A DNA stretch of 64,000 nt from Clostridia bacterium (GCA_045593265.1 JAZNWH010000131.1:9422-73421); one strand, 5' to 3'. Shown: positions 11,972-56,173, numbered from the stretch's first letter. Program-made: numbers and translations. The notes: a model not told the origin generated them from the sequence alone.

Positions 11972-14900
11972 ATGAAGAATAGAGCAAAAAGAGTTATGAG
12001 CCTTTTGATTTTGCTTACGATGATTGTTTCCTGTTTTACGGCAACAACTACTTTTGCGGCTCAAACTTATGGTGTTGACAATTTAAACAGTAAGAAAGGC
12101 GATTTGTATATTGGCTTTCTTGGTGGCTCAATAACTCAAGGATCAGGTGCGACATTGCTTGAAAACAGATATTCATCATTAATAACTAAAGAATTTTTTG
12201 GCAGTAAATTTGCTCCCGGAAAAGTTACGGAAATTAATGCTGCAGTCGGCGGAACAGGCACCGAGTATGGTCATATGAGAATGTATAAAGATTTAAGACT
12301 CGGAACTGAGGAATCTCCCGATGTTGTTTTTGTTGAATTTGCGGTAAACGACAGTTCTGTAAGTACACCATCACGACTTAAGAACATGGAATCAATTGTA
12401 AGACAACTTATTTCGCAACCTAAAATTCCTGCAATTATCTTTGTTTACACATTTTCGAGCGACTCACGATATATTGATGGTGCTGATGCCAAATCTGTAG
12501 AAGGTGCTATAGAGGATTTTCACAAGATAGCTGAAAACTACGGTATTTATGAAATTAACTTAACTGAATATATCGGTAAGGGAATAGAAGAAGGAAAATG
12601 GCTTTGGAATTCTTCGGGTCAGGAAAATAATTTATCTATAGATACGGCACATCCCAACGATTTCGGTTACAGAGTTTATGCAGATTACATTAAAGAATGT
12701 CTTGAAAAGGATTACGATAAAGCTTTTAGTAAGATAGACCCAATGACCAAGCCTTACGGTAATGACCTTTTCGGTGTTATAGAAGAAATATATTTTGGTG
12801 ATGACAGAGTTGTCAAAAGTAAAGAATGGAAACATAAGAAAAGAGTGGAAGGCACTGAAAACCATTTTTACAAAGGATTCTATACAAATCAGGATTCACT
12901 GGATGCAACCTTTGAGTTTGAATTTGAAGGCCGCGGTGTAGGTATCAATGTAACAAGAGATTATAATAATGCATATGTTAACTGGTCAGTAACCAAAAAA
13001 TCAACCGGAGAAGTTGTTGCTTCGTCAACAATAAGATATCCGTCTACCATTCAGCGCAATGATAACGGAATAGGTTTCTTACTTGCAACAGGACTACCAA
13101 AGGATACTTACATATTTAAGTGTACTCTTTCAGAGAGTGAACATGCAATAAACAGAGGCGGAAACGGAAAATATATGGCTATTGCCAATATTGTTGTAGA
13201 AAAGGATTTACATTCAAATCTTCCGGGACCTGACGGAAATGTAATTGCACCTGATGTAGATTCTTCCGGAGAAACAGAGAATATTCCACAGGAAGAAGTG
13301 AAGAATGAAAGTCTTGCAATATCAGGTGATAAAACAATTCTTTATGTAGCAAAGGATGGTAAGGATACCAACAATGGTTCGATAGATTCACCTTTTGCTA
13401 CTCTTGAAAAGGCGAGAGATACAATACGCTCACTTAAAAAGAGTGGTAATCTCGGTGAAGGTGGAGCTGTTGTTTATATAAGAGGCGGAGAATATTTAGT
13501 ACAGAAAGAATTGTTGCTTACTGAAGAGGATTCGGGAGCTGAAAATGCGCCCATTGTTTACAGAAATTATCCTGATGAGAAAGTTGAGTTTATGGGTGCG
13601 GTCGATATGAATACCGAACTGTTTAAACGTGTAACGGATGAAAGCGTATTAAATAAGATTGTCGATACTAAGGCAAGAGATAAGGTAGTGGCAGTTGATT
13701 TATTTGCATTGGGATACACGGAACTTCCTGAGCAGTATTGGCCTGGTGCATATTCCTACATTCAGAATATGCCGTCAATTACAGGTAGAGAAAAGCCGAC
13801 AGCAATAGCATCAGAACTTATTGTAAACGGTCAGGCACAAACAATTGCAAGGTATCCGAATAATGATTATATGTATATTGAATCTGTTATCGAACCGGGT
13901 GCAATGCCGAGAAACTGGAGTAACGATGTAAAAGGAAGCGACGATTATGTTAAGCCCGAGGACAGAGTACCTACACCTTTTACTTTTACGGTAGCTGATG
14001 AAAGAATTAAATACTGGACAGATGCAAAGGATGCACTTCTTTACGGTTATTTCTATTATTCATGGGCAGATCAGACGGTGCCTTTAGCATCAGTTGATGT
14101 TTCAAAGCATGCAATTACTTCAAAATATCCCAGCGTATACACTGTACTTGCAGATCAGTATTTCTACATATACAATTTGTTAGAGGAAATTGATATTCCG
14201 GGTGAATATTTTGTAGACAGAGAGAACGGTATTTTATACCTTTATCCTCCTGAAAGTGGCATCAGTTCAGCAATATATACTACTCTTGAGGATTATATGT
14301 TTAACCTTCAGGGAGCTGAATATATCAGCATAAAGGGTATTGATATGAGCTATATGAGAAGCGGTGCAATTTTCTCAATGGGTGTTAAAGGTGTTGAAAT
14401 CGCGGATTGTGAAATCAGCTATACAGGTTCTAAAGCGGTAACAGTTTCCGGTTATGACAATAAAGTATATGATTGCTATATTCACGATGTTGAAGGCGGT
14501 GTTGTGCTTGATGGCGGCGACAGAAAAAATCTGATTCCCGGTAATAATTATGTTGAAAACTGCGAATTTGAAAATTGTTCAAGAATTTCAAGTACATATA
14601 TGCCTGCCGTAACATTATCAAACATAGGTAACAGGGTAGTTAATAATAAAATCCATGGTTCACCTCATTTGCTTATTCAGTTCAGCGGTAATGACCATAT
14701 TATAGGATATAATGAAATTTACGATGCCTGTCAGCATACCGATGATGCAGGTGCTATGTATGCGGGTAGAGCAGTTTCACAGCAGGGAAACAGAATAATT
14801 AACAATTATTTCCACGATATTGAATCTGAAGAACTCGGTAATAATGGTGTATCGGGATTATATTTAGATGACTACTGGAGTTCCGCAGATATTTCGGGGA

Positions 14901-15859: not shown

Positions 15860-15906
15860 TTGCTTGTATCCGTGTATATTTAATATACACAGTTTACTCA
15901 TAAAAC

Positions 15907-15986
15907 TGCCTTGTTTGTTTTTTAAAAAAATAATATAACATCTCTTTCCAAATTATATGTTTTTTGCAAACAAGGCACCCCCTTTT
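15907..15986 (+). terminator. Putative terminator: an 11-bp stem (tgccttgtttg/caaacaaggca) with a large loop, followed by CCCCCTTTTT.
   Basis: Inverted repeat plus T-run downstream of the 11972 stop. The unusually long loop makes this uncertain. Confidence 0.3.
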
Positions 15987-16040
15987 TAAAAAAACTTTTA
16001 TTTTAAAAGTAATTATATATAAAAGAAAGGATTTGAAATT

Positions 16041-19000
16041 ATGAAAAACATTAAAAAGATAATTGGCATAATTCTTACAATTTGTATGGTTTTGCAAATA
16101 CTTCCCGTTTTTGCAAACGAAACACAAACAAGCGAAGCGGAATTTAATTATATTATCAATGATAATTTTTCCGCTGAAAGCTTTGATGGATGGAGTCTTG
16201 TGAAGGATACAGGGTATAGCTCCCTTGCAGACGATTTGGTTTCTTTGATACCTGTTGAAGGTGAAGAAGGAAACTATGCGCTTAACTATACTTCTGTTGA
16301 CAGCAAAACAGCAAGATATACTCATATTACAAGAACATTTGGTGAATCGGTTGCAATTTCAGGGGATAATGATATTGTAATCGAAACAAGAATGAAAACC
16401 ACAGGTACTAACCGTGCTTTCTTAAAGTATAATCTTGTAACATACCCTAAGTTTGAAAACGAATGGAATTATAACTGGGGAACATTAGTTGGTACTGACG
16501 GAAGTGATGTATTTGTACTAAATGGCTGGAAGGCAAATGAAACAACGCTTTTGTACGGATATCCTACAGAAGTTAAAACCAGTGTAAGTGATTTTGCTGA
16601 TAAATGGCATAATTACAAAATTGTGATTAAAGGCGGCGAAGTTGATACATCAACACATACCGCAGTTGGCAACACAATGGACATTATCGTAACCGATGAT
16701 GACGGAACAATTGTTAAAGAAAGTTACGGTCTTAGTATGGATTTTCCAAATGCTTCAAGCTGGGAAAATGTAAATGATAAAGGAAATGCAAATATAACAG
16801 ATTATAATTGGGTTGAAGATGCATTAAATACTCTGGACTTCAGATTAAGAGATGCAGAAACACTTACTGTTGACTATGTAAGAGTTTACCAGCAGTTTGA
16901 CGCAGATATGTCAGTTGATGAATTTATTCTTAATAATGAAGATGTAGTTATTAATATTGATATTGTAAAAGGTGATGCGTTATTTGAAAATTCTTTCGCT
17001 TTATATGATGCCTACGGTGATATTGTTGATACATTAAACTCTATTGATGAAACAAATAAAGTTGTAACACTTTCACCGATTGACAGTCTTACAGTAGGTG
17101 AAAAATATACAGTTAAGCTTAATAAATCGGTAGTTCCCGGTAACTATAATTTTGTAGAAGATGAAGTAAGCTTCATTGCATCCGATGTAAAATATATACT
17201 TTATGATGAATTCGGACAGGATGATTTAAATGGCTGGGAGCTTGTTAAGGATTCCGGCAAAACAACAAGCAGTACAACTGTACTTACATCACAGGAAATT
17301 CCTGAAGAAGCAGGTAACTATGCACTTGAATATATATCGGCTGCAACTCCTGAGGCAAACTGGAGATATAATCATATAACCAGAAAACTTTCATCATCTG
17401 TTCCTTTTGCAAGTGATAAAGAGCTTGTAATAGAAACAAGAATGAAATCAACAGGTACAGGACGTGTATATTTAAAGTACAATCTTGAAACATATCCATC
17501 TATTGTTAATGAATGGAACTATTGGTGGGGCGCACTTGTAGGTTCGGATACGGACAGATTCTATATTCCGAACGGATGGGAGCCAAAAAACGATGTTTAT
17601 TTGTCAAATCCTGTAAACACTGCATGGGATGAAGATGAAGTGCTGACAGGAACAGGTAATAAATGGTATACATATAAATTTGTAATTCATGGCGGAGAAA
17701 TTAATAACGAAACACATACTGCAACAGGAAACACAATGGATGTTACCATTACAGATAACGATGGTGCGGTTGTCACAGCTTTGAAAAATATGAGCATGGA
17801 TTTCCCGGACAATTCAACGTGGTCTCATTCAGGTTCTGTAAATGCCGAAAATGTAAACTGGGTTGAAGATGCATTAAATTCACTTGATTTCAGACTCAGA
17901 GCCCAAGAAACACTTACTGTTGACTATATAAAGGTTTATGAGCAGATTTCTGCAGATATGAGCGTTGATGCGTTTATTACTCCGAATGAAGAAATAAAAG
18001 TTACTGTTGATATAGAAAATGGTAATTCAGTTTTAAAAGATGCTTTCATATTATATGATGAGAATGATAATGTAATTGAAACATCAAATACAATCGACAG
18101 TACAAATAAGATTGTAACAATTGTGCCTGATGATAACCTTACAATGGGTAAAGAATACACAGTTAAGCTTGACACAACAAAAGTTCCTTCAAACTATGTT
18201 TTTGCAACAACTGAAAAAACTTTTAAAGTATCTGACATAAAGTACATCATGTATGATGAATTTGCAAACAACGATTTTGACGGATGGGAAGCAAAGGTGT
18301 TTAGTTCAAAATCATCTTCAAACACGCTTTCAACCGAGCCATATGAAGAAAATTCTGACAACTATGTACTTAAATACTCATCAGCAGATGCAACAAATTC
18401 CTATTACGGATATTTATCAAAATCAATTAATCCTGTTACATTCCCTACAGAAAAAGACCTTGTAATTGAAACTAAAGTTAAGGATACAAAGGGTTCGGCA
18501 GGTAAGGGTAGATTCTTCATTAAATATAATCTTGACGGCACAGCATATTCTGCAAATGAATGGCAGCACAGCTGGGGTGAATTTATCTGTGTAGATGAAG
18601 GTCTTGTATATGTTAATAATGGCTGGAAAGTACTTGCTTCAGGTTTAAACGGCACTAATTTAAAGTCTACCGGTTTGTCGGTAGCAGGTGATTGGCATAC
18701 ATATAAAATTGTGATTCATGGTGGAGAAACCAAAGACGAGGCAAAGGCAGACTACATTATATACAATTCAAACGGTGTTGAAGTAGCAAGACATGAAGGT
18801 ATAACACTTGATTTTCCGGACAACTCAGATTGGCCTAATGTAGGTACAGACACAGGTTCAACAGGTGCAAATTGGGTTGAAGGTGTTCTTAACTCTGTTG
18901 ATTTCAGATTAAGAAATGCAAATGAACTTTATATTGACTATGTAAAGGTTTATGAAAAGAAAGATGCTTCAGTTTTAGTAGATTGTAAAGATATTTTAGG

Positions 19001-22000
19001 TAATGCTGAAATTAATGCGTATATCAAAACCGGTACAGGAGCAATTGCTAATCCTGAAAAATATGTTGCTCTTTATAATGGAACAACAAAAGTTGATGCA
19101 AATATAACCTGTGAAGAAGGAACAAACAAGATTACGATTGATCCAACCGAAAAGCTTGAAATTGGTAAATATACCGTTAAATTTGATGTACAGGGCATTT
19201 TAAACGCAGGATATACAATTGATGGTCCTTCTGAATTTGATGTTAATGTTATATCTTCAACAAACGTAAATGAAACTTTTGAAGACATAACAACCGCCGA
19301 CCTTTCTGATAACGGTTGGTATTTCAGAAACGATGGACTTACAAATGTTACAAGAAATGCTGAAATTGTAACAGAAGATGGTAATAAATTCCTTAGAATC
19401 AGCGTAGACGGTGATTTGGAATTACTTGAAGGTAAGCTTGTTGCTTATTCCAAAGACCTTACAAATGCAAAATTTGTGAGAGATATGGAAAATTCAACTG
19501 TTATGGAGCTTAAGTTAAGAACAAATCTTAATACTGTAAGAAAGTATTTCAAATACAACTATCCGACAACAGGAAACATAAGCACCAATGCATATAATGA
19601 GCATGGCTGGAATACAAGACTCGGAGCGGTTATGGATGCAGGCAACATTGCCATTACATACGGAGACTACAGCTATAATGAAAGTGGCAGAATGCAGGGT
19701 AAAACTGAAAATATTGCCTCATATGAAACAAATAAATGGTATACAGTTAAAACAGTTTTTGACAATGCACAAGGTAAGGCAACAAGCTACATCTACGATG
19801 AAGAAGGGGTTCTTGTAGGCAGTGCGGAAGATAAAGCACTTTCAGCATGGTGGTTTAATTACTACGATTATGACAAGACAACACCTTTGGTTATGCATAC
19901 AATAGAAGACCTTACATTCCAGTTCAGACCGGAATCACTAAATGTTACGGTAGTAAATGAACAGTTTGATGTTGACGATATTAAGCTTTACAATATGAAA
20001 GTTTGTGATGAAAGTGTAAATGCGGTATTTAAGTCAAATGATGAAGTTGTTGATGTAATTGGCCGTGAAGTAACATCAATCGTTCCTGAATTTACCATTC
20101 AGACAGAAAATGACCAGACAAAAGATTATTATATAATAGCTGCTGTATACGAAAAGGATAAGCTTTTAACAAGTCAGTTTGTACCTGTTACAATTAACGG
20201 CAACGATACAATTACATTAGATGCAATTACTGTTGACCCACAGAATACAGATATTGAAGTAAGAGCATATATATGGGACAAAAATTTTGCTCCTGTATTA
20301 TCGACACCTACAATTATTAAACCTTTAGTTTGTGAGGTTTACCTTGCAACTGACGGAAATGATTTAAACACGGGGGAAGCAACTTCCCCCGTTGCTACTC
20401 TCAACAGAGCAATTGAAATTGTAAACGATGCTCCTGATGAAGGGTATATTACATCTAAAATTATAGTTAAAGACGGTAATTATGAGCTTACGGGAGAAAC
20501 AATTGAAATCGGCTCAAATGTTAAAACAGACAGTTTAGTTATTCAGGCAGAGAATGAAGCAAAATTTGTTAACGGTGTTGTTTTTAATATAAGTGATGCA
20601 ATCGGGGCTCCTGAGACAATTAAAGCAAGACTTGTTAATCAGGATGTTAAAGATAATCTTTATATGATTGATTTGACAACAAAGGTAGACCTTGAAGATA
20701 TTCCCGGTGTAAGCCTTCCCGGACCTTATTCATATTCAGCAAATGGTCTTAATACTCCGAATGGGGAATTTGTAATTGATGAAAGCAGAATTGCTACCTG
20801 TGAAATGTTCTTTGATAATAAACCTATGACTTTAGCAAGATATCCTGATAGTGAATATGAGGTTTTAGAAGAAGGAAAGTTCAGTTATGATGCAAATTCC
20901 CGTACACGCTACTGGATGGATGATGTTATTGGAACTGATGACTATATTGCTTTGGATGACCGTGTTACCGATGGATTTACCCTTACTCTTGACAGAGCAA
21001 AAAACTGGGGAAATGCCGACCAGGCACTTATGTTTGGTTACTGGTATTATGACTGGGCAACACAGACGGTTCCTGTAGCATCAATCGACACAACAAATGG
21101 TGTTATAACTTCTAAATATCCAAGTCATTATGGTTTGTATAAAACTCAGAGATATTATGTATATAATCTTTTAGAAGAAATCACACAGCCCAACGAGTAT
21201 TTCATCGACAGAACAACAGGCATTTTGTATTTTTACAAATCACCTGATGCACAACCTGATGATGAAATTATAATGTCCCTTTACGAAAATAAAATTTTTG
21301 ATATAAGAGCATCAAATGTTACAATAGACGGTCTTACATTTACTGCATCGAGAGATGCTGCAATTTATTCAAAGGGCAATAATGTTGTAATTAAAAACTG
21401 TGAAATATCAAATACAGCAGGTGTTGCTGTAGAATTGGACGGAACGAACTCAGTTCTTGAATATTGTAATATTCACGATGTTAATGGTGGTATAAAATTA
21501 TATGGCGGAAATCTCAATACTCTTACTCCCGGAAACAATAAGGTTTTAAATAATACTATTACAAATTTCTCTCGTCTTAGCAAAACCTACACGGATGCCA
21601 TTGAGGTTACAGGTGTAGGTAATAAAGCATCCCACAACAAGATTTCAGATGGTGAACATCTGGCAATGAGATTTTCGGGTGTTGATAACGAAATAAGCTA
21701 CAACGAAATTTTCAATGTATTAAAGGAAACAGATGAGGCAGGTGCAATTTACGCAGGACGTTCATGGACTTCAAGAGACAATGTTGTTAAATATAACTAT
21801 TTCCATGATCTTATTTCAACTGAAGAAACCACAATGCCTATTTGTGGAATTATGCTCGATGACCATTTCTCAGGTGTTGAAATTTTCGGTAACATATTCT
21901 CAAATGTTGCAGGTTATGGTATAAAGGGTACAGGAAGAGATTTGGTAATATCAAATAATATTTTCGAAAAATGCACCAGTGGAGCAGTTCGTTTAACAGA

Positions 22001-22370
22001 TGCTTCAGGTAATGCAAGCTCTTATTCAACCCATATTAAAAATATTGCAAAATACTATGGAAACGATGTTTGGTTTGAACGATTTGGAACAGAGCTTTTC
22101 ACGGAAGACGGAACAAGCTATAATCCTGATCTTGTAAATTCGGCAAATGTTGTTTATACAAACAATTTTGCAACCGATGTAGCTTCGGGTGCAGATTTCG
22201 GACCTGTAACAGAAGCAAGCGGAGCTAAAGAACCAAATAAAACCTTTGCAGTTACTAATCCGTTAAACGGAAATTACGAAAATAATGGTGCTGTTATTAC
22301 TCCATATCTTGAAGGATTTATTAATATTCCTTTTGAACAGATTGGCATAAACGGAACAGCAGGCAGATAA
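16041..22370 (+). CDS. Giant secreted protein of 2109 aa: three tandem copies of a roughly 380-aa unit (LamG/ConA-like beta-sandwich plus Ig-like domain), an Ig-like spacer, and a C-terminal right-handed beta-helix domain.
   Basis: Signal peptide. Each unit carries NYAL.Y...ETRMK.TGTxRxFLKYNL...WHxYKIVIxGGE...LDFRLRxxETLTVDYxxVYxQ. The beta-helix is paralogous to 11972 and 53382 (NNKISDGEHLAMRFSGVDNEISYNEIFNVLKETDEAGAIYAGR). Confidence 0.7.
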   Translation: MKNIKKIIGIILTICMVLQILPVFANETQTSEAEFNYIINDNFSAESFDGWSLVKDTGYSSLADDLVSLIPVEGEEGNYALNYTSVDSKTARYTHITRTFGESVAISGDNDIVIETRMKTTGTNRAFLKYNLVTYPKFENEWNYNWGTLVGTDGSDVFVLNGWKANETTLLYGYPTEVKTSVSDFADKWHNYKIVIKGGEVDTSTHTAVGNTMDIIVTDDDGTIVKESYGLSMDFPNASSWENVNDKGNANITDYNWVEDALNTLDFRLRDAETLTVDYVRVYQQFDADMSVDEFILNNEDVVINIDIVKGDALFENSFALYDAYGDIVDTLNSIDETNKVVTLSPIDSLTVGEKYTVKLNKSVVPGNYNFVEDEVSFIASDVKYILYDEFGQDDLNGWELVKDSGKTTSSTTVLTSQEIPEEAGNYALEYISAATPEANWRYNHITRKLSSSVPFASDKELVIETRMKSTGTGRVYLKYNLETYPSIVNEWNYWWGALVGSDTDRFYIPNGWEPKNDVYLSNPVNTAWDEDEVLTGTGNKWYTYKFVIHGGEINNETHTATGNTMDVTITDNDGAVVTALKNMSMDFPDNSTWSHSGSVNAENVNWVEDALNSLDFRLRAQETLTVDYIKVYEQISADMSVDAFITPNEEIKVTVDIENGNSVLKDAFILYDENDNVIETSNTIDSTNKIVTIVPDDNLTMGKEYTVKLDTTKVPSNYVFATTEKTFKVSDIKYIMYDEFANNDFDGWEAKVFSSKSSSNTLSTEPYEENSDNYVLKYSSADATNSYYGYLSKSINPVTFPTEKDLVIETKVKDTKGSAGKGRFFIKYNLDGTAYSANEWQHSWGEFICVDEGLVYVNNGWKVLASGLNGTNLKSTGLSVAGDWHTYKIVIHGGETKDEAKADYIIYNSNGVEVARHEGITLDFPDNSDWPNVGTDTGSTGANWVEGVLNSVDFRLRNANELYIDYVKVYEKKDASVLVDCKDILGNAEINAYIKTGTGAIANPEKYVALYNGTTKVDANITCEEGTNKITIDPTEKLEIGKYTVKFDVQGILNAGYTIDGPSEFDVNVISSTNVNETFEDITTADLSDNGWYFRNDGLTNVTRNAEIVTEDGNKFLRISVDGDLELLEGKLVAYSKDLTNAKFVRDMENSTVMELKLRTNLNTVRKYFKYNYPTTGNISTNAYNEHGWNTRLGAVMDAGNIAITYGDYSYNESGRMQGKTENIASYETNKWYTVKTVFDNAQGKATSYIYDEEGVLVGSAEDKALSAWWFNYYDYDKTTPLVMHTIEDLTFQFRPESLNVTVVNEQFDVDDIKLYNMKVCDESVNAVFKSNDEVVDVIGREVTSIVPEFTIQTENDQTKDYYIIAAVYEKDKLLTSQFVPVTINGNDTITLDAITVDPQNTDIEVRAYIWDKNFAPVLSTPTIIKPLVCEVYLATDGNDLNTGEATSPVATLNRAIEIVNDAPDEGYITSKIIVKDGNYELTGETIEIGSNVKTDSLVIQAENEAKFVNGVVFNISDAIGAPETIKARLVNQDVKDNLYMIDLTTKVDLEDIPGVSLPGPYSYSANGLNTPNGEFVIDESRIATCEMFFDNKPMTLARYPDSEYEVLEEGKFSYDANSRTRYWMDDVIGTDDYIALDDRVTDGFTLTLDRAKNWGNADQALMFGYWYYDWATQTVPVASIDTTNGVITSKYPSHYGLYKTQRYYVYNLLEEITQPNEYFIDRTTGILYFYKSPDAQPDDEIIMSLYENKIFDIRASNVTIDGLTFTASRDAAIYSKGNNVVIKNCEISNTAGVAVELDGTNSVLEYCNIHDVNGGIKLYGGNLNTLTPGNNKVLNNTITNFSRLSKTYTDAIEVTGVGNKASHNKISDGEHLAMRFSGVDNEISYNEIFNVLKETDEAGAIYAGRSWTSRDNVVKYNYFHDLISTEETTMPICGIMLDDHFSGVEIFGNIFSNVAGYGIKGTGRDLVISNNIFEKCTSGAVRLTDASGNASSYSTHIKNIAKYYGNDVWFERFGTELFTEDGTSYNPDLVNSANVVYTNNFATDVASGADFGPVTEASGAKEPNKTFAVTNPLNGNYENNGAVITPYLEGFINIPFEQIGINGTAGR

Positions 22371-22407
22371 TACAACATTTATATACTAAACTTCAAGGAG
22401 GGTTAAT

Positions 22408-25400
22408 ATGGATTTAAAGAAATTGACAGCAGTGCTTTGTACAATAACCTTAATATTTTCGTTGATTTCAATCCCTGCTTTTGTTGGTGAAGCTGCAGAG
22501 GCTAAATATATGATTATCAACGATAATTTCGGTGAAAATGATTTGTGCGGTTGGGAAAGAAACGCTCTTTCAACCTGCAGAAATTTTGCAACAATTTCAA
22601 CGGAAGAAATAGGCGGCGGAAATTATGCTTTGACATACGAGAGTGTTCAGTCATCAGCACTTCCGACGAAATCTGACTGGTATGGAGAATATTTACAAAA
22701 AGAATTATCAGATGGTGGTCTTGAATTTACCGAAGGTATTAACACAGTTATTAAAACGAGAATTAAAACAAAGGGAACAGGCAGAGCGTTTTTGAAAATT
22801 AATGCACCTTTAATGAATAGCACGGATCCCTGGAATTTCAATTGGGGCTCCTTGTTCTCAAATGAGGAAGGCAGTTTTTATGCAATAAACGGGTGGCCGG
22901 GTAACACATATCCTACTACGACTGCAGGGATAAGCGGACTTTCTGACAAATGGTGTGTAGTAATGGTTACAATACACGGAAATACCAAAACTGCGACTTT
23001 TGAAATCACTCCCGAAGGTGGAGAAACAACTACTTATTCAAATCTTAATATTGATTACCCTGATGTTGCAAATATGGAAGAAGATTTTCTTAAAAAGCTT
23101 GTTTTCAGATTAAGAGCTGCAGAAAAGCTTTATGTTGACTATATTCAGGTATGGCAGGAGGGAATAAAAGTAACAGAAGCTACTGCTGTTGCAGGACTTG
23201 ATAATGTTGATGTAAGTCTTACGAGCAATGCAAAGCTTAAGGATTTGGTTAAGGATTATATTGATTTGTACAATTCCGACGGTTCAACCAAAATTGAAAC
23301 TGTTAAAAGCTTTGATGCTGATACGAATGTTCTAAAGCTTGTTTGTGAATCTGGGTTAGTAACAGGTGAAACATATAAGGTAAAGATTGATACAGATGCA
23401 TTATTTACAGATTTACTTTATAAATGGGAAGCAGACAGTGAATTAACTGTTCAGGCACCTGAAGCTGCAGTGTTTAATCTTGGAATAGAAGGTGAACTTG
23501 TACCTAATACAAATCTTGAAGCAGTTTACGATTTAGTTCCAAACGGAGCTTTAGAAGATATATCTGAATTTATCTGGTACACAGTTAATGAAAATGGTGA
23601 AAAGACGGAAATCAGCGGTCAGACAGGAAAGTATTTTCCTGTAACGACGGATTATGTAGATTCTACCATTACATATTCAATGGTGCCAAAATGCATAGCA
23701 GATGGCGAAACAAAAACAGGCGTTCTTATGGATTGTCAAAAAAATGTTAAGCCTTTATCAGCTCCTGTTATAACAAATCCCAAATTTGCACCCGAAAATC
23801 CTATTGTGGGATATTCACTTTCAGCTTCTTACGATTATTTTGATGCTGATGGAGATGGTGAAGATGGTAGTCTCATAACCTGGTATAAATCAGATGCATT
23901 TGACGGAAGTTTTGAGGAATTTGCTACAGGAAAGACAATTGAGGTTACAGAAAAAGGAATGTATTATCAATACACAGTTATTCCAAAAAACGGCGCTTTA
24001 TTCCGTGAGGAAGGCGAAATGGTAACAAGCCCTGTTTCTGCTCGTTCAAACGATATTATTGAGGCGACAAATTTATTTGTTAACGGTGATGCAGAGGACG
24101 GAATAATTGCACCTTGGGATTTAACCAAAAAAACTGATGATTATAACGGTCTTTCTCTTGTGGAAGACAGCAATGGAATATACGACGGGAATTATGCATT
24201 CCGTATGCATCCGAGAGTAGTGAATGGTAACACTTTTTGGCAGGAAGTAACACTTGGTGCAGGAAAAACTTACATAGTTTCTGCCATGATAAAGTCAACC
24301 TCTGTTGATACCTGGAACAAACTTGAGGGATATGTAATGAGCAGTAATAGTACTAATTACACAAAACCTTACCGTATGGCTGAAAGAACAGATGTGTCCG
24401 ATGAATGGACAAGAGTATCTCTTACTCTTAATTCATCTGTTGAAGAAAAGTATAAGATTGGTTGGCTTTCATTTGAAGATGCTTATGGTGCTGATGCGTA
24501 TATAGATGATATGTATGTCGGAGAGCTTATGATTTCCGATATTTTAACAAATAAAATAAAGCAGGTAACTATTCCAAAGCAGGGTAAAGATCCAATCAAG
24601 GTTTCTGTTCTTACTACAGAAAATGGGAAAATTTTAAACCAATTTGGTGAAACCGATGGTCTTATCGACCAAAAAGCAACAGTGTCAGTACCTGCTGATA
24701 TTAAAGGTGTAACAGTTAAGGATAATGTACTTTATGTGGATTCAAATGCTGTTACAGGCAAAGTAAATGTAATGGTAAAATGTGTACCTGACTATAATCT
24801 TCCGGGTGAAGAAGGTAACATTATTGCAGTTACACCTGCACAGAGCGAATTTGTAAAGACTATTGAAATTGAACTTGTTGCTCACGATGATAAAACACCA
24901 TATGCACAGAATGTTGACGCTAACGGTACTGTTGCACTTGGAAACACTCTTACAGGTTATTATGATTTTTATCAGGTAGACAACGAAACTGATGCATCTA
25001 CTGTAAGATGGTTATATTCAGACAGTGCTGACGGTACATACTATGAAATTCCCGGAGCAACAGGAATGACTTATACTGTTACAAGCGATTATGCAGATAA
25101 GTTTATTAAATTTGCAGTAACACCAAAAACACAAACAGGTCTTATGGGAACGGAAGTAATGTCAGATGTTCTTGTTAAACCGACAGCACCTGTTGCGAAG
25201 GAAATTTCAGTAAGCGGTGATTTTAAGGTTGGAGGAACTGTTACAGGTACATATAAATTTGAAGATTATAATCGTGATAATGAAAATGAAGCCTTAACAA
25301 CATTTAAGTGGTATGTTGCCGATTCAGAATACGGTCAATATAATGAAATTCCGGGACAAACAGGAACATCTTTAATTCTGGGAGAAGAATTAATTGATAA

Positions 25401-26481
25401 ATACATAAAGTTTTCTGTAACACCTGTGGCTGATGCTGAGCCTTACAAAGGCACAGAAACATTCAGTAATTCTGTTATGGGACCTGTAGCACCTGTCGCA
25501 ACTAATGTTTCAATTACAGCAAATGGTGCCAGATTATCAGGTAATTATAAGTATTATCATAAATATAATGCAAGAGAAAAAGAGTCTCTTTATAAGTGGA
25601 CAGTTGATGGAACAGTGGTTTCTACAACGACAAATTATACTGTGAATTTTACGGGAACAAAGGTTGTAACATTTACAGTAACGCCTGTTGGCGATACAAA
25701 TCCATCGACAGGTAATCCTGTAAGTGTTTCTGTGGTTATAACAGGAACAAGTGATAGTGTAGGTGGCGGCAGTTCCACAGGCGGCGGAAGCTATGTCGGC
25801 GGCGGTGGTGCCTCTGGCGGAGGAACATCTTCCGGTTCATCACCATCAGGCGGAGAAGTTGTTTCAGGTATTGTAAGCATCAATAAAATGGAATATGAGC
25901 AGGAACTGCCCAAAGATGAAAACAAAGAAAACCAAAGCCAAACGAGTGATATTAACGGACATTGGGGAGAAGAATACATAAAAACAATGGAATCTCGCGG
26001 AGTAATGTCCAAAGATGAAAGCGGTAAATACAATCCTGATGAGCTTGTTACAAGAGAATCTATGCTCACATATCTTTTCAAGACCTTAAAGCTTGAATCA
26101 ACTGATTATTCGGGAATGTTTGAAGATGTTAACGATGGTGAATTTGCTGGTATGCTTCAAACTATGGTGGATAATGGTACTATTTCAGTTGATACAACCT
26201 TTAGACCCAATGACAGCATTTCCCGTGAAGAAATGTGTAAAATACTTTACATTTCGTTACAAAATGCAGGTAAACTCGGCAATGTTGAAGAAGGAAAAAT
26301 AAATTCACTTGCAGATTTCGGAGAAATTTCCGATTGGGCAGTAAAATATGTAAATGCAATGTATGGTACAAAAATGATGATTGGTGTATCGGAAGAACGT
26401 TTTGCACCAAAGGAAAATTTAACAAAGGCACAGGCTGCTACATTGCTTACAAGGATAATATCGTTAGTAGAGGGGGAGTAA
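22408..26481 (+). CDS. SLH-anchored surface protein of 1357 aa: signal peptide, one LamG-like module, an Ig-like domain, repeated roughly 90-aa beta-sandwich units, a CBM4/9-like domain, a Gly/Ser linker and three C-terminal S-layer-homology domains.
   Basis: Repeats carry W/YxSDxxDGxYxEIPGxTGxxYTVTxDYADKFIKFAVTP. CBM4/9-like segment NLFVNGDAEDG...W. Three SLH motifs (DINGHWGEEYIKTMESRGVMSKDESGKYNPDELVTRESM, and two more). Confidence 0.7.
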   Translation: MDLKKLTAVLCTITLIFSLISIPAFVGEAAEAKYMIINDNFGENDLCGWERNALSTCRNFATISTEEIGGGNYALTYESVQSSALPTKSDWYGEYLQKELSDGGLEFTEGINTVIKTRIKTKGTGRAFLKINAPLMNSTDPWNFNWGSLFSNEEGSFYAINGWPGNTYPTTTAGISGLSDKWCVVMVTIHGNTKTATFEITPEGGETTTYSNLNIDYPDVANMEEDFLKKLVFRLRAAEKLYVDYIQVWQEGIKVTEATAVAGLDNVDVSLTSNAKLKDLVKDYIDLYNSDGSTKIETVKSFDADTNVLKLVCESGLVTGETYKVKIDTDALFTDLLYKWEADSELTVQAPEAAVFNLGIEGELVPNTNLEAVYDLVPNGALEDISEFIWYTVNENGEKTEISGQTGKYFPVTTDYVDSTITYSMVPKCIADGETKTGVLMDCQKNVKPLSAPVITNPKFAPENPIVGYSLSASYDYFDADGDGEDGSLITWYKSDAFDGSFEEFATGKTIEVTEKGMYYQYTVIPKNGALFREEGEMVTSPVSARSNDIIEATNLFVNGDAEDGIIAPWDLTKKTDDYNGLSLVEDSNGIYDGNYAFRMHPRVVNGNTFWQEVTLGAGKTYIVSAMIKSTSVDTWNKLEGYVMSSNSTNYTKPYRMAERTDVSDEWTRVSLTLNSSVEEKYKIGWLSFEDAYGADAYIDDMYVGELMISDILTNKIKQVTIPKQGKDPIKVSVLTTENGKILNQFGETDGLIDQKATVSVPADIKGVTVKDNVLYVDSNAVTGKVNVMVKCVPDYNLPGEEGNIIAVTPAQSEFVKTIEIELVAHDDKTPYAQNVDANGTVALGNTLTGYYDFYQVDNETDASTVRWLYSDSADGTYYEIPGATGMTYTVTSDYADKFIKFAVTPKTQTGLMGTEVMSDVLVKPTAPVAKEISVSGDFKVGGTVTGTYKFEDYNRDNENEALTTFKWYVADSEYGQYNEIPGQTGTSLILGEELIDKYIKFSVTPVADAEPYKGTETFSNSVMGPVAPVATNVSITANGARLSGNYKYYHKYNAREKESLYKWTVDGTVVSTTTNYTVNFTGTKVVTFTVTPVGDTNPSTGNPVSVSVVITGTSDSVGGGSSTGGGSYVGGGGASGGGTSSGSSPSGGEVVSGIVSINKMEYEQELPKDENKENQSQTSDINGHWGEEYIKTMESRGVMSKDESGKYNPDELVTRESMLTYLFKTLKLESTDYSGMFEDVNDGEFAGMLQTMVDNGTISVDTTFRPNDSISREEMCKILYISLQNAGKLGNVEEGKINSLADFGEISDWAVKYVNAMYGTKMMIGVSEERFAPKENLTKAQAATLLTRIISLVEGE

Positions 26482-26484
26482 CAG

Positions 26485-29178
26485 ATGAAAAACTTTAAAA
26501 AACTTTTAAGTATAATACTTGCGTTGCTTACGGTCGTATCTGCTGTTCCTGTTTCTGCGGTGTACGATATGGCTACAGAGGAATTTATTGATGATATTTT
26601 CAGATTTGATGTAGGAGAATTTGTTCAGGATATCGAAAGTGTTACAGATGATCCCGATGTTAAAAGAATGGAATTTTTAACTACATTAGGCATATGGGAT
26701 GATGCGACAAAGTCAAAATCAGCTCTTATTACTATGAGTGAATATGCAACTATTATGTCAAGATTAAGACTTGGCGGACAGAATGCATTTGTTGGTGTTT
26801 ATGAAAAGAATAATGATACATCAAATGTAACCTACGGTGTTGTTCTTGAGGGATTGCTGCAGACACTTGGTTATCACTATCAGTGTAAGCAATATGGCGA
26901 TGATGAAAAGTCTTTACTTATTGTTGCCACAGAAATAGGTCTTATTTCAGGAGATGTGCAGAATATAAATTCTTTTGTAAACCGTAATACTTTTGCTAAA
27001 ATGATTGAAAGGGCATTAAGCATTGATTTGTGTGTGGCTGAATATACCGATTACGGTATCAGTTATGTTGTCTCTGACGGTAAAACAATTCTCAGCACAG
27101 TACATAATATTCATGAATTAAGTGGTTTTGTTAACGCAATTTATGGTCTTAATGTATATGGCGGTGCAGGTCTGCGAAAAGGTTATTTTGAAATCGACAG
27201 AACAGAGATTAATGCACAGGGACTTGATATAACACAATATTTGGGTACACGCGTTAAAGCTTATGCAAAAACAGATGAAATTTCTAAAGAATATAAGCTC
27301 ATATATATTGCACCTGATTCCGATAATGAAGCTTTGACAATTGATTTTAAAAACATTACTGATATTACAGGAAACACAATCGCTTATATTAATGAAGATG
27401 GTACGGAAGATGAAATAAGAGTTGACAATTACAACTATATTATTGAAAACGGAAAAGATATCGGAAGTCTCTCTCAGATGTGTGATTTCAGCGAAAACGA
27501 AGGAAAAATTGTTTTCGTAGCATCAGAAAAAGGCGGTAGCTTTGATACTGCGGTTATTTACAGATACGAATATTTTGTAACTGATTATATTGACACATAT
27601 GAAAAACGAATCGGACTCAAGTTTGGTATGAAGCACCAAAATGATACATATATACCTGTCAACGAAATGGGTATTAACCGTATAATTATTGAAGGTGAAG
27701 AAACTGATTATACAAGCATCAAATCTAATCAGGCAATACGTGTTTTTTCTTGTGAAGATACAAATTATCTTGAAATTATAGTGTCGGAAGATAAAATTGT
27801 AGAGGGCATTATATCAGGTATGTACGAGGATATACTTGAGGTTAATAATCAGAAATACAGAATTTCAAAGAACCTTTCTAAGCGCATATCAGATTCCGAA
27901 ACTTCAGGTGAGGAAGAATATACTAAAATTAAGATGCCTGAATTTGGTGTTAATGTAAGACTTTTCGTATATGGGGATGTTATTACGGGATATACAGCTA
28001 ATGACGGTTATATGCATGCGTACCTTAAAGGCATTAAAAAAGCCAGAACAAGTCTTGACCCTGAGCTGACTTTAAGACTTTACACACAGAATGGGGAATG
28101 GCTTGATGCACCATTTGCTGATAAAGTAACTATTGATACTGTTTCGGGATATTCAAAATCTGACATTTCCCAGTGGCTCAACGAGCAGTATGATGAAAGT
28201 AATACTAATACAGATATTATTATTGACGAGCTTGTAAGAGTCAAGTTAAACGGTGAAAACAAAATTTTTGCTCTTGATACCGTAATCGAAACAGGAATAG
28301 AAACGGACACCTATGATGATATAAGTCATGCTTCTGATTACGAAGGTGGAAGAGTTACTGCAAGACCGGGCTTCCATAGATGGGAAATCGGACAGGAGAG
28401 ATATAAATTTGATAAAACCGCTCCCGTGTTTGTTGTACCTGAAGACAGAAGCAAGGAAGATAAATACAGAGCAGTTAATCCTACTGCCCTGAGTAATGCT
28501 GTAAGCTATGATATGATATGTTACAGTCCTAATGAATTTCTGCATTTAGGTGCAGTTATAGTTATCGGTGATCTCGAAGGTACTTCTGCAAGCAAGGGTG
28601 AACCGGGAATTATGTATGTAGAAAACATTAGAAATATAGTGATTGATGCAGAAAATTTTGAGTATGGATACAGAGTTATTGGTACAAATTTTGTTGCAAG
28701 TTCCAATCCTGGTGTAGGAGCTTGTAAGGAGGTTTCCTATACCATAACAAAGGAACGCTATGATAAAGCAGTAGCTGAGGGTAATGGTTTTGTTGTCGGC
28801 GATGTTATCAAACTTGACAATGTTTCAAAAAACGAAATTATCAGTTGGTCGTTCTTTGCTGAAATTGAAAGAAGCAGTTCAAAAATTACAGGTACTACCT
28901 GGAATGTTTATGATTACGGAACTCTTAATGGCGTTGAAAATTGTAAGGTTTATTTAGGAAAAGTCGAAAGAGTTGATGTAGACAATGTGTTATTGCTTAT
29001 TGATTGCGGTGCAGGAGGAAAAATAGTAGTAAAACCAAGAGCTAAAGCTATAATTGATGGAAATACAAAAAAAGCAACAAATATAGAAATCGGAGATTTT
29101 CACGAAAATGATATAGTATTTGCATTTGGTGTTGGTGCTCATGTAAATGTTGTGTTTAAGACAGTAAATATTGAATAA
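26485..29178 (+). CDS. Secreted protein of 897 aa with N-terminal SLH-like domains and an unknown C-terminal region paralogous to the ORF at 1..1454.
   Basis: Signal peptide MKNFKKLLSIILALLTVVSAVPVSA. SLH-like segments near the N-terminus. The C-terminal 450 aa align with ORF 1-1454. Confidence 0.6.
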   Translation: MKNFKKLLSIILALLTVVSAVPVSAVYDMATEEFIDDIFRFDVGEFVQDIESVTDDPDVKRMEFLTTLGIWDDATKSKSALITMSEYATIMSRLRLGGQNAFVGVYEKNNDTSNVTYGVVLEGLLQTLGYHYQCKQYGDDEKSLLIVATEIGLISGDVQNINSFVNRNTFAKMIERALSIDLCVAEYTDYGISYVVSDGKTILSTVHNIHELSGFVNAIYGLNVYGGAGLRKGYFEIDRTEINAQGLDITQYLGTRVKAYAKTDEISKEYKLIYIAPDSDNEALTIDFKNITDITGNTIAYINEDGTEDEIRVDNYNYIIENGKDIGSLSQMCDFSENEGKIVFVASEKGGSFDTAVIYRYEYFVTDYIDTYEKRIGLKFGMKHQNDTYIPVNEMGINRIIIEGEETDYTSIKSNQAIRVFSCEDTNYLEIIVSEDKIVEGIISGMYEDILEVNNQKYRISKNLSKRISDSETSGEEEYTKIKMPEFGVNVRLFVYGDVITGYTANDGYMHAYLKGIKKARTSLDPELTLRLYTQNGEWLDAPFADKVTIDTVSGYSKSDISQWLNEQYDESNTNTDIIIDELVRVKLNGENKIFALDTVIETGIETDTYDDISHASDYEGGRVTARPGFHRWEIGQERYKFDKTAPVFVVPEDRSKEDKYRAVNPTALSNAVSYDMICYSPNEFLHLGAVIVIGDLEGTSASKGEPGIMYVENIRNIVIDAENFEYGYRVIGTNFVASSNPGVGACKEVSYTITKERYDKAVAEGNGFVVGDVIKLDNVSKNEIISWSFFAEIERSSSKITGTTWNVYDYGTLNGVENCKVYLGKVERVDVDNVLLLIDCGAGGKIVVKPRAKAIIDGNTKKATNIEIGDFHENDIVFAFGVGAHVNVVFKTVNIE

Positions 29179-29183
29179 AAAAA

Positions 29184-29206
29184 GGCTTCGGCAAAATGCC
29201 GAAGCC
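29184..29206. terminator. GC hairpin ggcttcggc-aaaat-gccgaagcc after the 26485 gene. The A-run lies 5' and there is no T-run 3' on the + strand.
   Basis: Perfect 9-bp stem. The orientation of the T/A tracts is atypical for a + strand terminator. Confidence 0.3.
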
Positions 29207-29245
29207 TGAGTGCTGAATGAATAATCATAAAAAATGGAGTTAGAC

Positions 29246-37619: not shown

Positions 37620-37723
37620 TTTAACACCTCTTTTTCGTTATTTTACATCTATATTTCCTTTTTGTCAATTCCATAATCAAAAATATATATGTATACTAAA
37701 ACTGTATAGTGAGAGGTGAATCT

Positions 37724-38425: not shown

Positions 38426-38435
38426 GAGGGTTAAT

Positions 38436-40763: not shown

Positions 40764-40765
40764 AT

Positions 40766-56105: not shown

Positions 56106-56173
56106 TGTATTTAAATGAATCGTAAAGATTCATCTGAATAAAAAATTTATTAATGAAAGGGATGTTTTGAATC

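Follow-up and report, generated by a model that had tools for sequence, protein, structure and literature searches.

Introduction

For phage Q-beta, retroviruses and plant viruses as well as a number of eukaryotic genes, programmed stop codon readthrough is well established. Examples are the UGA between the coat and A1 proteins of Q-beta, the gag-pol stop of MuLV, which is followed by a pseudoknot after about 8 nt, and eukaryotic genes with a UGA-CUAG context. In bacteria, UGA followed by C is the weakest terminator, and a conserved in-frame UGA usually encodes selenocysteine (Sec), for which a hairpin just downstream is used. The weak UGA-C is also part of the prfB +1 frameshift site (CUU UGA C). 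An established example of structure-stimulated stop codon readthrough in a bacterial cellular gene was not found in our literature search.

Here, we describe a junction between two reading frames (B2 and B3) from gut Clostridia that resembles the viral and eukaryotic sites in its putatively leaky UGA followed by C, in structured RNA that starts after 7 nt and in conserved coding sequence downstream. It would likewise yield a short abundant and a minor C-terminally extended product. Unlike these sites, it would belong to an operon for extracellular enzymes on a bacterial chromosome; where MuLV has a pseudoknot, three tandem hairpins are predicted. With Sec recoding and prfB it would share the exploitation of an in-frame UGA. 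In contrast to prfB, no frame change is needed and no SD-like stimulator is present upstream, and in contrast to Sec, the UGA is located in a linker and no SECIS model matches. Programmed UGA readthrough is our best reading of this junction, to which we assign a probability of roughly 0.55.

The encoded proteins are best compared with the SLH-anchored GHs and cellulosome-like systems of Clostridia. Alike are the signal peptides, Ig spacers, carbohydrate-binding-type modules and the SLH triplet as well as the clustering with GH genes, transporters and AraC regulators. On the other hand, our arrays are free of dockerin and cohesin, their binding module forms a private family, and anchor and enzymes reside on separate polypeptides that show no obvious means of docking.

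Two copies of a five-gene cassette

Within the window, i.e., the whole analysed stretch of 64,000 nt, two same-strand arrays were found where the initial annotation had placed them, namely A (11972-29178) and B (53382-64000), the latter continuing past the window end. The array features discussed below are on the + strand. The arrays are diverged paralogous copies of one five-gene operon-like cassette, which is found again in all fully covered related loci (MAG/metagenomes of herbivore-gut Clostridia). They are neighboured by GH20, GH38, GH3 and GH31 genes, a solute-binding protein and AraC regulators; no tRNA genes were found near the cassettes.

A1 (11972..15859) combines a signal peptide, an SGNH/GDSL esterase (aa 47-240), a GH141-like beta-helix and a C-terminus matching the Pfam family Cu_amine_oxidN1 (aa 1164-1259); its ATG is preceded by the SD sequence AAGGAG. 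B1 (53382..56105) is its paralogue without the esterase (43% over 854 aa), i.e., it consists of signal peptide, GH141-like beta-helix and Cu_amine_oxidN1-like C-terminus. A1 is also paralogous to A2 and B3. A2 (16041..22370, 2109 aa) starts with a signal peptide, followed by three lectin-fold modules, each succeeded by a Big_5 Ig domain, and a beta-helix. It is the uninterrupted fused counterpart of two ORFs of array B, i.e., of B2 (56174..59533), which comprises a signal peptide and three lectin-fold modules with Ig spacers and terminates at a conserved TGA, and of B3 (59534..61654), a GH141-like beta-helix whose frame is open from the codon after the TGA. For B3, the ORF caller sets the start to the GTG at 59540 (ORF 59540-61654).

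A3 (22408..26481) carries a signal peptide, one lectin-fold module (aa 27-273), five AIR9-type Ig repeats and a C-terminal SLH region (aa ~1165-1350, E 4.9e-22). With the signal peptide at its N-terminus, it shows the make-up of an SLH-anchored surface protein. Its paralogue B4 (61735..64000, past the window end) comprises a signal peptide, a lectin-fold module, Big_5 and two AIR9-type Ig repeats, where the latter count (at least 2) refers to the part visible before the window end. SLH C-termini are present on the B4 orthologues in five related loci (L001, L004, L006, L084, L087). Finally, A4 (26485..29178, 897 aa, with signal peptide) is a conserved fifth cassette member. No match was obtained in Pfam, NCBIfam or PDB and only 6 homologues were found; orthologues of 873-899 aa occupy the same cassette position in L001, L004, L007, L010, L084, L087 and L088.

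Most of the earlier domain reading stands. The two anchor types are present, i.e., SLH in A3 and Cu_amine_oxidN1 C-termini in A1 and B1, of which the latter tail is a candidate for a second mode of attachment. The Ig-like spacers are identified as Big_5 domains, and the ~90-aa repeat is the AIR9-type Ig domain of A3 and B4. The small shared domain vocabulary applies to most ORFs, with the exception of A4 (26485-29178), which has none of these domains. The reported CBM4/9-like domain is reduced to a weak CBM4_9 match in B4 (E 4.5e-4), below the Pfam cut-off. Duplication of signal peptide and 5'UTR/RBS was likewise recovered: the respective DNA of the A1/B1 (11972 vs. 53382) and A2/B2 (16041 vs. 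56174) pairs scores 38 and 49, compared to shuffle maxima of 27 and 33. The count of at least eight secreted proteins has to be corrected. Signal-peptide-like N-termini (judged by eye) are found on 7 ORFs of both arrays, while B3 shows neither a signal peptide nor a Shine-Dalgarno sequence before 59540. An SD of GGAGG type precedes every array gene except B3.

GH141-like beta-helix domain

The beta-helix domain is present in four ORFs (A1 aa ~457-1088, A2 aa ~1433-2052, B1 aa 66-743, B3 aa 1-625), joined to the SGNH esterase in A1, which is the distribution proposed before. The four domains show pairwise identities of 28-43% (E 1e-55 to 1e-139). Their family had been considered not assignable, but profile search, Foldseek and a catalytic Asp pair place it as a remote relative of GH141. 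Using the AF2 model of B3 (pLDDT 95, pTM 0.94), Foldseek returns on ranks 1-4 the chains of 5mqp (BT_1002, GH141; E 1e-17, TM 0.5-0.6). A profile of the beta-helix family (66 sequences) matches 9rx2 (1e-103) and 5mqp (7e-48) in the PDB. A search of the PDB with the single B3 sequence did not reach 5MQP, and no window protein matches Pfam GH141_M at E up to 0.01, such that the profile and fold searches lead to GH141 while the Pfam family is matched only by the distant relatives P0072 and P0077.

With the described GH141 enzymes, i.e., the alpha-L-fucosidase BT_1002 (5MQP), Xyn141E of C. thermocellum and the Wf141 endo-fucanases, the window family shares the right-handed beta-helix, the N-terminal cap and the inserted domain; it differs by a sequence identity of only ~14%. 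D523 and D564 of BT_1002 are essential (PMC12786026). In the HMM alignment, the BT_1002 chain residues D528 and D569 are aligned with the family-invariant D474 (DDAGAIY) and D516 (LDD). Since both BT_1002 pairs are spaced by 41 residues, we assume a tag offset of 5. The Asp pair is kept in A1, B1 and B3, and A2 has a Glu at the first position (equivalent to D474 of B3). Taken from profiles and models, the beta-helix thus places as a distant GH141 relative.

A clear family member is PDB 9rx2 ('Parallel beta-helix repeat protein', 717 aa), which is covered by the profile match over nearly its full length and is also found by phmmer with B3 alone (E 2e-15). Unlike B3, it stands alone, begins with a signal-like N-terminus of its own and has neither lectin modules nor a stop codon ahead. 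Our literature search for 9rx2 returned no function and no paper.

Lectin-fold module

The module of ~260 aa is found three times in A2 (26-295, 375-645, 724-985), followed by a weak fourth copy (1092-1248), three times in B2 (27-321, 396-679, 754-1004) and once each in A3 and B4. This agrees with the initial annotation, which had described a LamG-like module of ~250 aa with three copies in two proteins and one in two others. Its predicted structure is of moderate quality (pTM 0.80, pLDDT 74). Foldseek relates the model to legume lectins and calreticulin (E 3e-8 to 1e-6, TM ~0.45-0.5), i.e., the predicted fold is concanavalin-A/legume-lectin-like. The concanavalin-A-like lectin/glucanase superfold also includes LamG and many CBMs. 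'LamG-like' is thus right at the superfamily level given this fold match. As in jelly-roll CBMs, the first and last strands of the module pair with each other.

Structure and sequence searches differ for this module, since the similarity to lectins has no counterpart among PDB chains, Pfam families or curated CBMs when searched by sequence. An exhaustive profile search of 1.84 billion proteins yields a family of 60 cluster representatives, compared to one protein returned by a word-indexed homology search with the module profile. From the predicted fold, glycan binding by the modules seems plausible. The cassette defines a divergent GH141-related clade along with a private lectin-fold module in herbivore-gut Clostridia.

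Proposed lineage-restricted surface apparatus

Taken together, the cassette would encode a cell-wall-attached glycan-degrading apparatus of an uncultured herbivore-gut Clostridia lineage, for which we infer a location at the cell surface. It would comprise (1) a secreted hydrolase that joins a GH141-like beta-helix to a Cu-amine-oxidase-N-like tail, with an additional SGNH esterase in A1, (2) a secreted carrier that is built of at least three lectin-fold modules and Ig spacers and ends in a second GH141-like beta-helix, (3) a protein with an SLH anchor, a single lectin module and AIR9-type Ig repeats and (4) a secreted protein of ~890 aa. The domain content, the remote GH141 kinship with its kept catalytic Asp pair and the conservation of the cassette are the firm part of this picture. 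Its core, i.e., a lineage-restricted, duplicated apparatus for glycan degradation at the cell surface, had been proposed as a lineage-specific expansion and holds given the GH-type beta-helices, lectin-fold modules, SLH, signal peptides, GH neighbourhood and recurrent cassette. What had to be revised is the placement of beta-helix and module, and the UGA between B2 and B3 had been missed.

Conserved in-frame UGA between carrier and beta-helix

B2 and B3 share one frame and are parted only by the TGA and two codons. The TGA (59531..59533) is situated in the linker between carrier and beta-helix within the context GAT TGA CTT ACT GTG T, and B2/B3 is the sole TGA-split pair of long same-frame ORFs in the window. 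An in-frame TGA is found at the same boundary in 13 distinct loci from three lineages (copy B and 12 others), at protein identities that go down to 35-36%, and is always followed by C. The loci are mutually related and thus do not represent 13 independent observations, i.e., the relevant count is that of the three lineages. Within the main lineage, 'A TGA CTT ACT GTG T' is invariant in all 11 loci. Several different codons precede the stop (GAU, CAU, CAA, AAA). The other two lineages, each represented by one locus (L010 and L088), show TGA-CTG. The residues before and after the UGA are not conserved between lineages.

The constraint is also visible at the nucleotide level. For the 11 main-lineage loci, synonymous codon identity is 0.98 for codons -6 to +3 and 0.79 for +4 to +13, compared to a background of ~0.53. 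Downstream of the stop, the ORF of ~660-700 codons is intact and its catalytic residues are invariant. Natural fusions with no stop at the carrier/beta-helix boundary are A2 and P0022, and a third fused protein is P0029 (1196 aa). Judged by frame and homology, B3 is thus best described as the in-frame continuation of B2 over a single TGA, and A2 as the respective fused form.

A single in-frame stop that splits what array A encodes as one gene might also indicate a nonsense mutation, a sequencing error or a pseudogene of this one genome. However, the same TGA is present in independent assemblies from many samples and in three lineages, at protein identities among TGA-bearing loci of 35-87%, and the ORF behind it is kept intact with invariant catalytic residues, which makes an isolated defect extremely improbable.

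Three further readings of the stop were rejected. A use of TGA as sense codon is in conflict with TGA-free ORFs of up to 2109 codons and with four other ORFs that end in TGA. A genome-wide leakiness or splitting of genes does not hold either, i.e., the other pairs of long same-frame ORFs with one stop in between show TAA followed by an SD and ATG. Ribosome hopping as in T4 gene 60 does not fit the varying codon before the stop and the high conservation of the peptide that would be bypassed.

Initiation of the downstream frame

In all 11 main-lineage loci, a GTG is found exactly 6 nt past the stop. Termination-reinitiation is thus physically possible in the main lineage, i.e., a ribosome could end B2 at the UGA and restart at this GUG. 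The beta-helix would then be a separate protein with no signal peptide, located in the cytoplasm or exported otherwise, while the hairpins and conserved nucleotides discussed below would tune the coupling. Such coupling needs very short intergenic distances (PMC10666635), which the invariant GTG provides, and apparently cytoplasmic beta-helix relatives with their own ATG and no signal peptide exist (P0031, P0032).

The other two lineages do not fit this explanation. Both keep the TGA, but the first in-frame start codon follows 55 codons (165 nt; L010) or 23 codons (69 nt; L088) later and falls inside the conserved N-terminal cap, such that a complete domain is unreachable from any start. A start codon within a few nt of the stop is a feature of the main lineage only. 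Coupling is reported to be almost abolished by a distance of ~20 nt (PMC10666635). Within the main lineage, the GTG has no SD while all neighbouring genes have a strong one, and it is never swapped for ATG or TTG. A cytoplasmic enzyme would also sit oddly beside its paralogues, each of which is either secreted or joined to a secreted carrier. With regard to the hairpins, structures right after stop codons have been reported to control re-initiation (PMC7518266), but according to the same study stable structures at this position insulate against re-initiation rather than promote it. We thus consider a restart at the GUG rather unlikely.

An internal promoter was rejected as well. The junction contains TTGACT, but the putative -10 (CATACA/G) is without the key T, and the scan for promoter-like sites at the junction found none above shuffle expectation. 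Furthermore, respective transcripts would begin inside B3.

RNA structure downstream of the UGA

Three consecutive RNA hairpins are predicted at 59541..59605, i.e., H1 (59541-59558), H2 (59559-59574, with the GNRA-type loop GUGA) and H3 (59575-59605), the first of which begins 7 nt after the UGA. For the main lineage, RNAalifold predicts 25 base pairs and 8 of these show compensatory changes. Within the hairpin alignment, 92% of the cells are paired, and on 4/5 measures the observed values were reached by none of 500 shuffles. The junction of the window has an MFE of -33.3 kcal/mol (z -4.6). On average, z-scores are -3.6 for the 13 stop-containing junctions compared to -0.69 (sd 1.34) for 52 stop-less homologues, a few of which also fold well (z below -3). 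L010 and L088 show stable structures after the TGA that differ from the main-lineage hairpins.

A conserved in-frame UGA with conserved hairpins close by is the signature of bacterial Sec, in which case one of the hairpins would be a bacterial SECIS element. H2 offers a tetraloop with a leading G ~31 nt after the UGA, which agrees only with the loose generic bSECIS geometry that has been published. However, no Rfam family, including those of bacterial SECIS, matches the window junction at E up to 10, and none matches four other loci at gathering thresholds. The UGA is placed in an inter-domain linker of an extracellular glycanase and not in a redox centre, near its position, Leu, Val or Ala rather than Cys is found in the fused homologues, the flanking residues vary between lineages, and the loop of the strong hairpin in L010 is ~46 nt away from the UGA and thus too far. 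Insertion of Sec is therefore very improbable.

Another role of the hairpins is suggested by A2, which retains an H3-like hairpin (~20370-20392) where no stop is present. The UGA might thus be a plain terminator and the hairpins might act on the mRNA by shielding the processed B2 transcript at its 3' end or, as a variant, as 'ribosome termination structure', with the beta-helix ORF being poorly expressed or expressed by another route. Selective RNA processing and stabilisation has been described for clostridial cellulosome operons, where stem-loops behind genes set the subunit stoichiometry (Clostridium cip-cel; PMC4423207, PMC10311766), and post-stop structures are common in bacteria (PMC7518266). 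Such a function leaves unexplained, however, why the TGA-C is constant, in frame and within a linker that has no intergenic spacer, why synonymous sites are frozen in the two codons after the stop, and why an intact beta-helix ORF of ~660-700 codons is under selection with no initiation signal. We regard a purely mRNA-directed role as improbable.

When JGI metagenomes were scanned for the DNA pattern of the junction, with any codon allowed at the stop position, L080 was the only match. It is part of a non-coding, promoter-like AT-rich region and probably due to chance.

Proposed programmed UGA readthrough

Programmed readthrough of the UGA would account for the observations as follows. The stop is conserved across diverged relatives and the coding signature continues behind it, homologous to the fused proteins. 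The leaky UGA-C context is present in all loci, accompanied by nucleotide-level constraint around the stop. RNA structure starts a few nt downstream, although A2 keeps one hairpin with no stop, and B3 is without an independent initiation signal, except for the GTG at +6 of the main lineage. The comparative support appears unusually clean, i.e., a stop kept in three lineages, frozen synonymous sites, covarying stems and two lineages with no usable start.

Most ribosomes would terminate at the UGA and yield the lectin-module carrier alone, while some would decode it, probably via a near-cognate tRNA such as tRNA-Trp. Decoding would be aided by the weak UGA-C context and by stable RNA from 7 nt downstream, i.e., at the mRNA entrance of the ribosome. 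The readthrough product would be a carrier-enzyme fusion of ~1826 aa that is exported through the signal peptide of the carrier. The outcome would be a ratio between non-catalytic and catalytic forms that is either fixed or dependent on RF2.

As an explanation of the whole locus, we slightly favour a surface apparatus with such readthrough over its absence. Chances are about even that this bacterial operon uses RNA-structure-stimulated UGA readthrough to add a GH141-like catalytic domain to a fraction of its secreted carriers, with a signal of UGA-CU and downstream hairpins that is conserved over three diverged lineages of gut Clostridia.

If true, the junction would stand for a new class of recoding sites in bacteria and for a novel means of setting the enzyme-to-scaffold stoichiometry on the cell surface. 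It would provide a mechanism that fixes the share of catalytic surface proteins relative to those that only bind. Gene callers would systematically mis-annotate such enzymes as leaderless or N-terminally truncated, and P0016 and P0021 would be calls of this kind. The junction might also provide a compact recoding element for Gram-positive synthetic biology.

The B2-B3 frame with its conserved UGA and RNA structure was absent from the initial annotation and is the most unusual feature of the locus. Within the same window, the fused paralogue A2 provides an internal control.

Gene arrays and cassette organisation

The window has a GC content of about 36%, and its forward strand carries a series of genes for glycan utilisation. 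Array A consists of A1 (11972-15859, 1295 aa), A2 (16041-22370, 2109 aa), A3 (22408-26481, 1357 aa) and A4 (26485-29178, 897 aa). Array B consists of B1 (53382-56105, 907 aa), B2 (56174-59533, 1119 aa), B3 (59540-61654, 704 aa, GTG start) and B4, which begins at 61735 and runs past the window end; all eight genes are on the forward strand. Genes between and around the arrays encode GH20, GH38, GH31 and GH3 enzymes, a GNAT-like acyltransferase, AraC regulators, an M24 peptidase, a PIG-L deacetylase, mannose-6-phosphate isomerase, an aldose epimerase and a solute-binding protein. A PFL-like glycyl-radical enzyme (775 aa), a radical-SAM activase and an FGGY sugar kinase (37709-42040, between the arrays) adjoin the GH38 and mannose-6-phosphate isomerase genes, and a 460-aa ORF at the left edge (72-1454) has no Pfam match. 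Directly 3' of A4, the array A transcription unit probably ends at an 11-bp GC-rich terminator-like hairpin with T-runs (29183-29207).

We retrieved related loci via B3 homologues and judged gene order on those that are fully covered. These share one order, i.e., a B1-like enzyme with a Cu_amine_oxidN1 tail, a multi-module carrier (lectin-fold modules plus Ig spacers), the beta-helix, an SLH protein with AIR9-type repeats and an A4-like protein of 873-899 aa, with an AraC-type regulator nearby in several loci. GH20, GH2, GH3, GH31, melibiase, GNAT-like and M24 genes surround these cassettes. Given the same order across loci, arrays A and B are two diverged copies of one cassette (BLASTP identity: A1-B1 43%, A2-B3 beta-helices 42.5%, modules about 24%). 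In one related locus, the A1/B1-like first gene (L004:330-4457) has a SASA (sialate O-acetylesterase-type) domain in place of A1's SGNH esterase, which points to acetylated glycans as targets.

Domain composition

The initial annotation described both arrays as drawing on a common domain vocabulary, and all-against-all BLASTP bears this out. The beta-helix domain spans aa 457-1088 of A1, 1433-2052 of A2, 66-743 of B1 and 1-625 of B3, while a local HMM finds the module of about 260 aa in four proteins: A2 and B2 have three copies each, A3 and B4 a single one, and A2 has a fourth, weak copy besides. Pfam recovers the proposed SGNH esterase (GDSL/SGNH, A1 N-terminus), the Cu-amine-oxidase-N-like C-termini (Cu_amine_oxidN1 in A1 and B1), the SLH anchor (in A3) and the Ig-like spacers (Big_5 domains following the modules), and it identifies the repeat of about 90 aa as the AIR9-type Ig domain, of which A3 has five copies and the portion of B4 inside the window has two. 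The suggested CBM4/9-like domain does match CBM4_9 in B4, but weakly and below the Pfam cut-off. Duplication of ribosome-binding sites and signal peptides is seen as well, i.e., in this DNA, the likeness of A1/B1 and of A2/B2 exceeds that of shuffled controls. The earlier description of the arrays is thus accurate except for its count of at least eight secreted proteins: by inspection, only seven ORFs have a signal-peptide-like start, and B3 (MYVQAYSGSD...) enters the first strand of the beta-helix cap at once.

No sequence match for the module was found in Pfam, NCBIfam or PDB. Searched exhaustively with an HMM, 1.84 billion cluster representatives yielded only 60 proteins, and nearly all full-length ones are large, multi-module and of the same kind as those of the window. 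Built from the eight copies in the window, an AlphaFold2 model of moderate quality (pLDDT 74, pTM 0.80) resembles calreticulin globular domains and legume lectins, i.e., a concanavalin-A-like fold (E 3e-8 to 1e-6). The label 'LamG-like' is therefore right at the superfold level, and putative carbohydrate binding is a reasonable inference.

The beta-helix domain as a remote GH141 relative

Used as a single query, B3 finds one solved relative, 9rx2 ('Parallel beta-helix repeat protein', E 2e-15), for which our literature search found no paper. A profile from an alignment of 66 family sequences matches 9rx2 with E 1e-103 and BT_1002 (5MQP), the founding GH141 alpha-L-fucosidase, with E 7e-48. An AlphaFold2 model from the same alignment (pLDDT 95, pTM 0.94) has the 5MQP chains as its best Foldseek matches (E 1e-17, TM 0.5-0.6), followed by GH120 and GH110. 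In BT_1002, D523 and D564 are reported to be essential (PMC12786026). We equate these with residues 528/569 of the 5MQP chain by the equal 41-residue spacing, assuming a tag offset of 5, and the HMM alignment pairs the latter with the family-invariant D474 (DDAGAIY motif) and D516 (LDD). Both putative catalytic Asp are kept in A1, B1 and B3; A2 has Glu at the first (TDEAGAIY), a position that is Asp throughout the 66 family members. The window proteins do not reach Pfam GH141_M. Profile, structure matches and the aligned Asp pair therefore predict a remote GH141-type glycosidase, so that a fold previously held to be unassignable from sequence can be placed. The family is broad, with members in gut Clostridia MAGs, Kiritimatiellia, Verrucomicrobiota, Planctomycetota, Bacteroidota and Paenibacillus.

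An in-frame UGA between carrier and beta-helix

B2 and B3 lie in the same reading frame and are separated by a TGA at 59531-59533 (...GCA AAC GAT TGA CTT ACT GTG TAT GTT...). The same architecture occurs without a stop in A2, in the homologous protein P0022 and in a further fused protein, P0029. A lesion peculiar to the source genome was considered and rejected, since all recovered loci have the same arrangement: B3 homologues of 36-87% identity 'start' at the identical residue, and the carrier gene ends 6 nt before this 'start', in the same frame, in every locus. 'A TGA CTT ACT GTG T' is invariant in the 11 distinct sequences of the main lineage, while the linker upstream is unalignable. Codon identity at codons for the same amino acid is 0.98 in -6..+3 and 0.79 in +4..+13, against a background of about 0.53 in the remaining 900 aligned codons.

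In two more lineages, this domain boundary also carries a TGA, between different flanks (L010, CAT TGA CTG AAC AGG...; L088, GAT TGA CTG AAG ATT...). Here, the first in-frame ATG/GTG/TTG follows 55 (L010) and 23 (L088) codons after the TGA. The gene-caller ORFs of these loci (P0021 and P0016) lack the conserved N-terminal cap YVxxxGxDxxxGxxxxPxxxL, which is encoded right after the TGA, in frame and without stops. The water-deer caecum MAG RGIG8497 holds three cassette copies (L008, L009 and the divergent L010, which lacks a nearby start codon), all three with the in-frame TGA.

Termination followed by reinitiation at the GUG of B3 could operate in the main lineage. For L010 and L088 it fails as an explanation, since such coupling reportedly breaks down by about 20 nt (PMC10666635), and its product would be a leaderless enzyme.

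RNA structure downstream of the UGA

RNAalifold predicts three successive hairpins from the 11 main-lineage junctions, the first 7 nt 3' of the UGA: H1 (59541-59558), H2 (59559-59574, GUGA loop) and H3 (59575-59605). Compensatory double changes are found in 8/25 pairs, several at synonymous third positions, and 92% of cells are paired compared to 29-55% in slid-partner controls. On four of five measures, none of 500 column shuffles reaches the level of the real alignment. The window junction folds with -33.3 kcal/mol (z -4.6), and L010 and L088 form equally stable yet different structures at the same place. The mean folding z is -3.6 for the 13 stop-containing junctions versus -0.69 (sd 1.34) at the equivalent position of 52 stop-less homologues.

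The hairpins could also act on the mRNA, either through selective processing and stabilisation of the kind described for cellulosome operons of clostridia or as 'ribosome termination structures', which leaves the properties of the stop unexplained. Decoding of the UGA as selenocysteine is unlikely, since the site is a linker, homologues align no Cys to it, and an Rfam search of the junction matches no family, SECIS families included.

Beyond its training loci, a covariance model of the element matches only a weak site in A2 and the pattern-selected L080. Although A2 has no stop at its carrier/beta-helix boundary, an H3-like hairpin of 10 bp (ACGGGGGAAG/CUUCCCCCGU) and an H1-like stem are still present there (20318-20401; 23 bits; z -3.25 for the 93 nt beginning at 20331). 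They may have been inherited from an ancestor that had the stop, or the hairpin may have a role beyond readthrough. In L080:24-85 (JGI contig Ga0316603_10116552), the 20-nt junction motif TTGACTTACTGTGTATGTT..GCATAC lies in AT-rich non-coding sequence upstream of a GntR-like gene and, with its operator palindromes, resembles a -35/-10 promoter; the pattern search probably picked it up by chance.

Proposed readthrough of the UGA

UGA followed by C is regarded as the weakest bacterial termination signal, and a spacing of the 7-nt type between stop and structure is classical for recoding stimulators. From these sequence comparisons, we put the probability that translation proceeds through the UGA by readthrough at even or marginally better (0.5-0.55). 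The majority product would be the 1119-aa carrier and the minority product a carrier-enzyme fusion of about 1826 aa, whose enzyme would be exported via the carrier's signal peptide. Readthrough would account for the invariable frame and TGA-C, the location in a linker between domains, the freezing of synonymous sites, the structure at recoding-stimulator spacing, the lack of a usable start codon in two lineages, the natural fusions and enzyme export. It would also account for the missing Shine-Dalgarno sequence of B3, while a strong one precedes every other gene of both arrays. Against it count the H3-like hairpin retained by the stop-less A2, the good folding of a few stop-less controls, the leaderless members of the family and the fact that the 13 junction loci make up three lineages and are not independent events.

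By themselves, the arrays stay within known kinds, with SLH anchoring, a lectin-fold module of a private family and a divergent clade related to GH141. The conserved UGA and the structured element behind it would be a variation on a known mechanism in the setting of bacterial chromosomal genes for secreted enzymes, for which we know of no established precedent; none surfaced in our literature search for such genes.

A3 and A4 likewise share a frame, one stop and one codon apart (26479-26487). This stop is a TAA preceded by a strong Shine-Dalgarno sequence (GGGGGAG), and A4 starts with an ATG and a signal peptide of its own. The frame differs in relatives, and A3/A4 is thus an ordinary gene junction.
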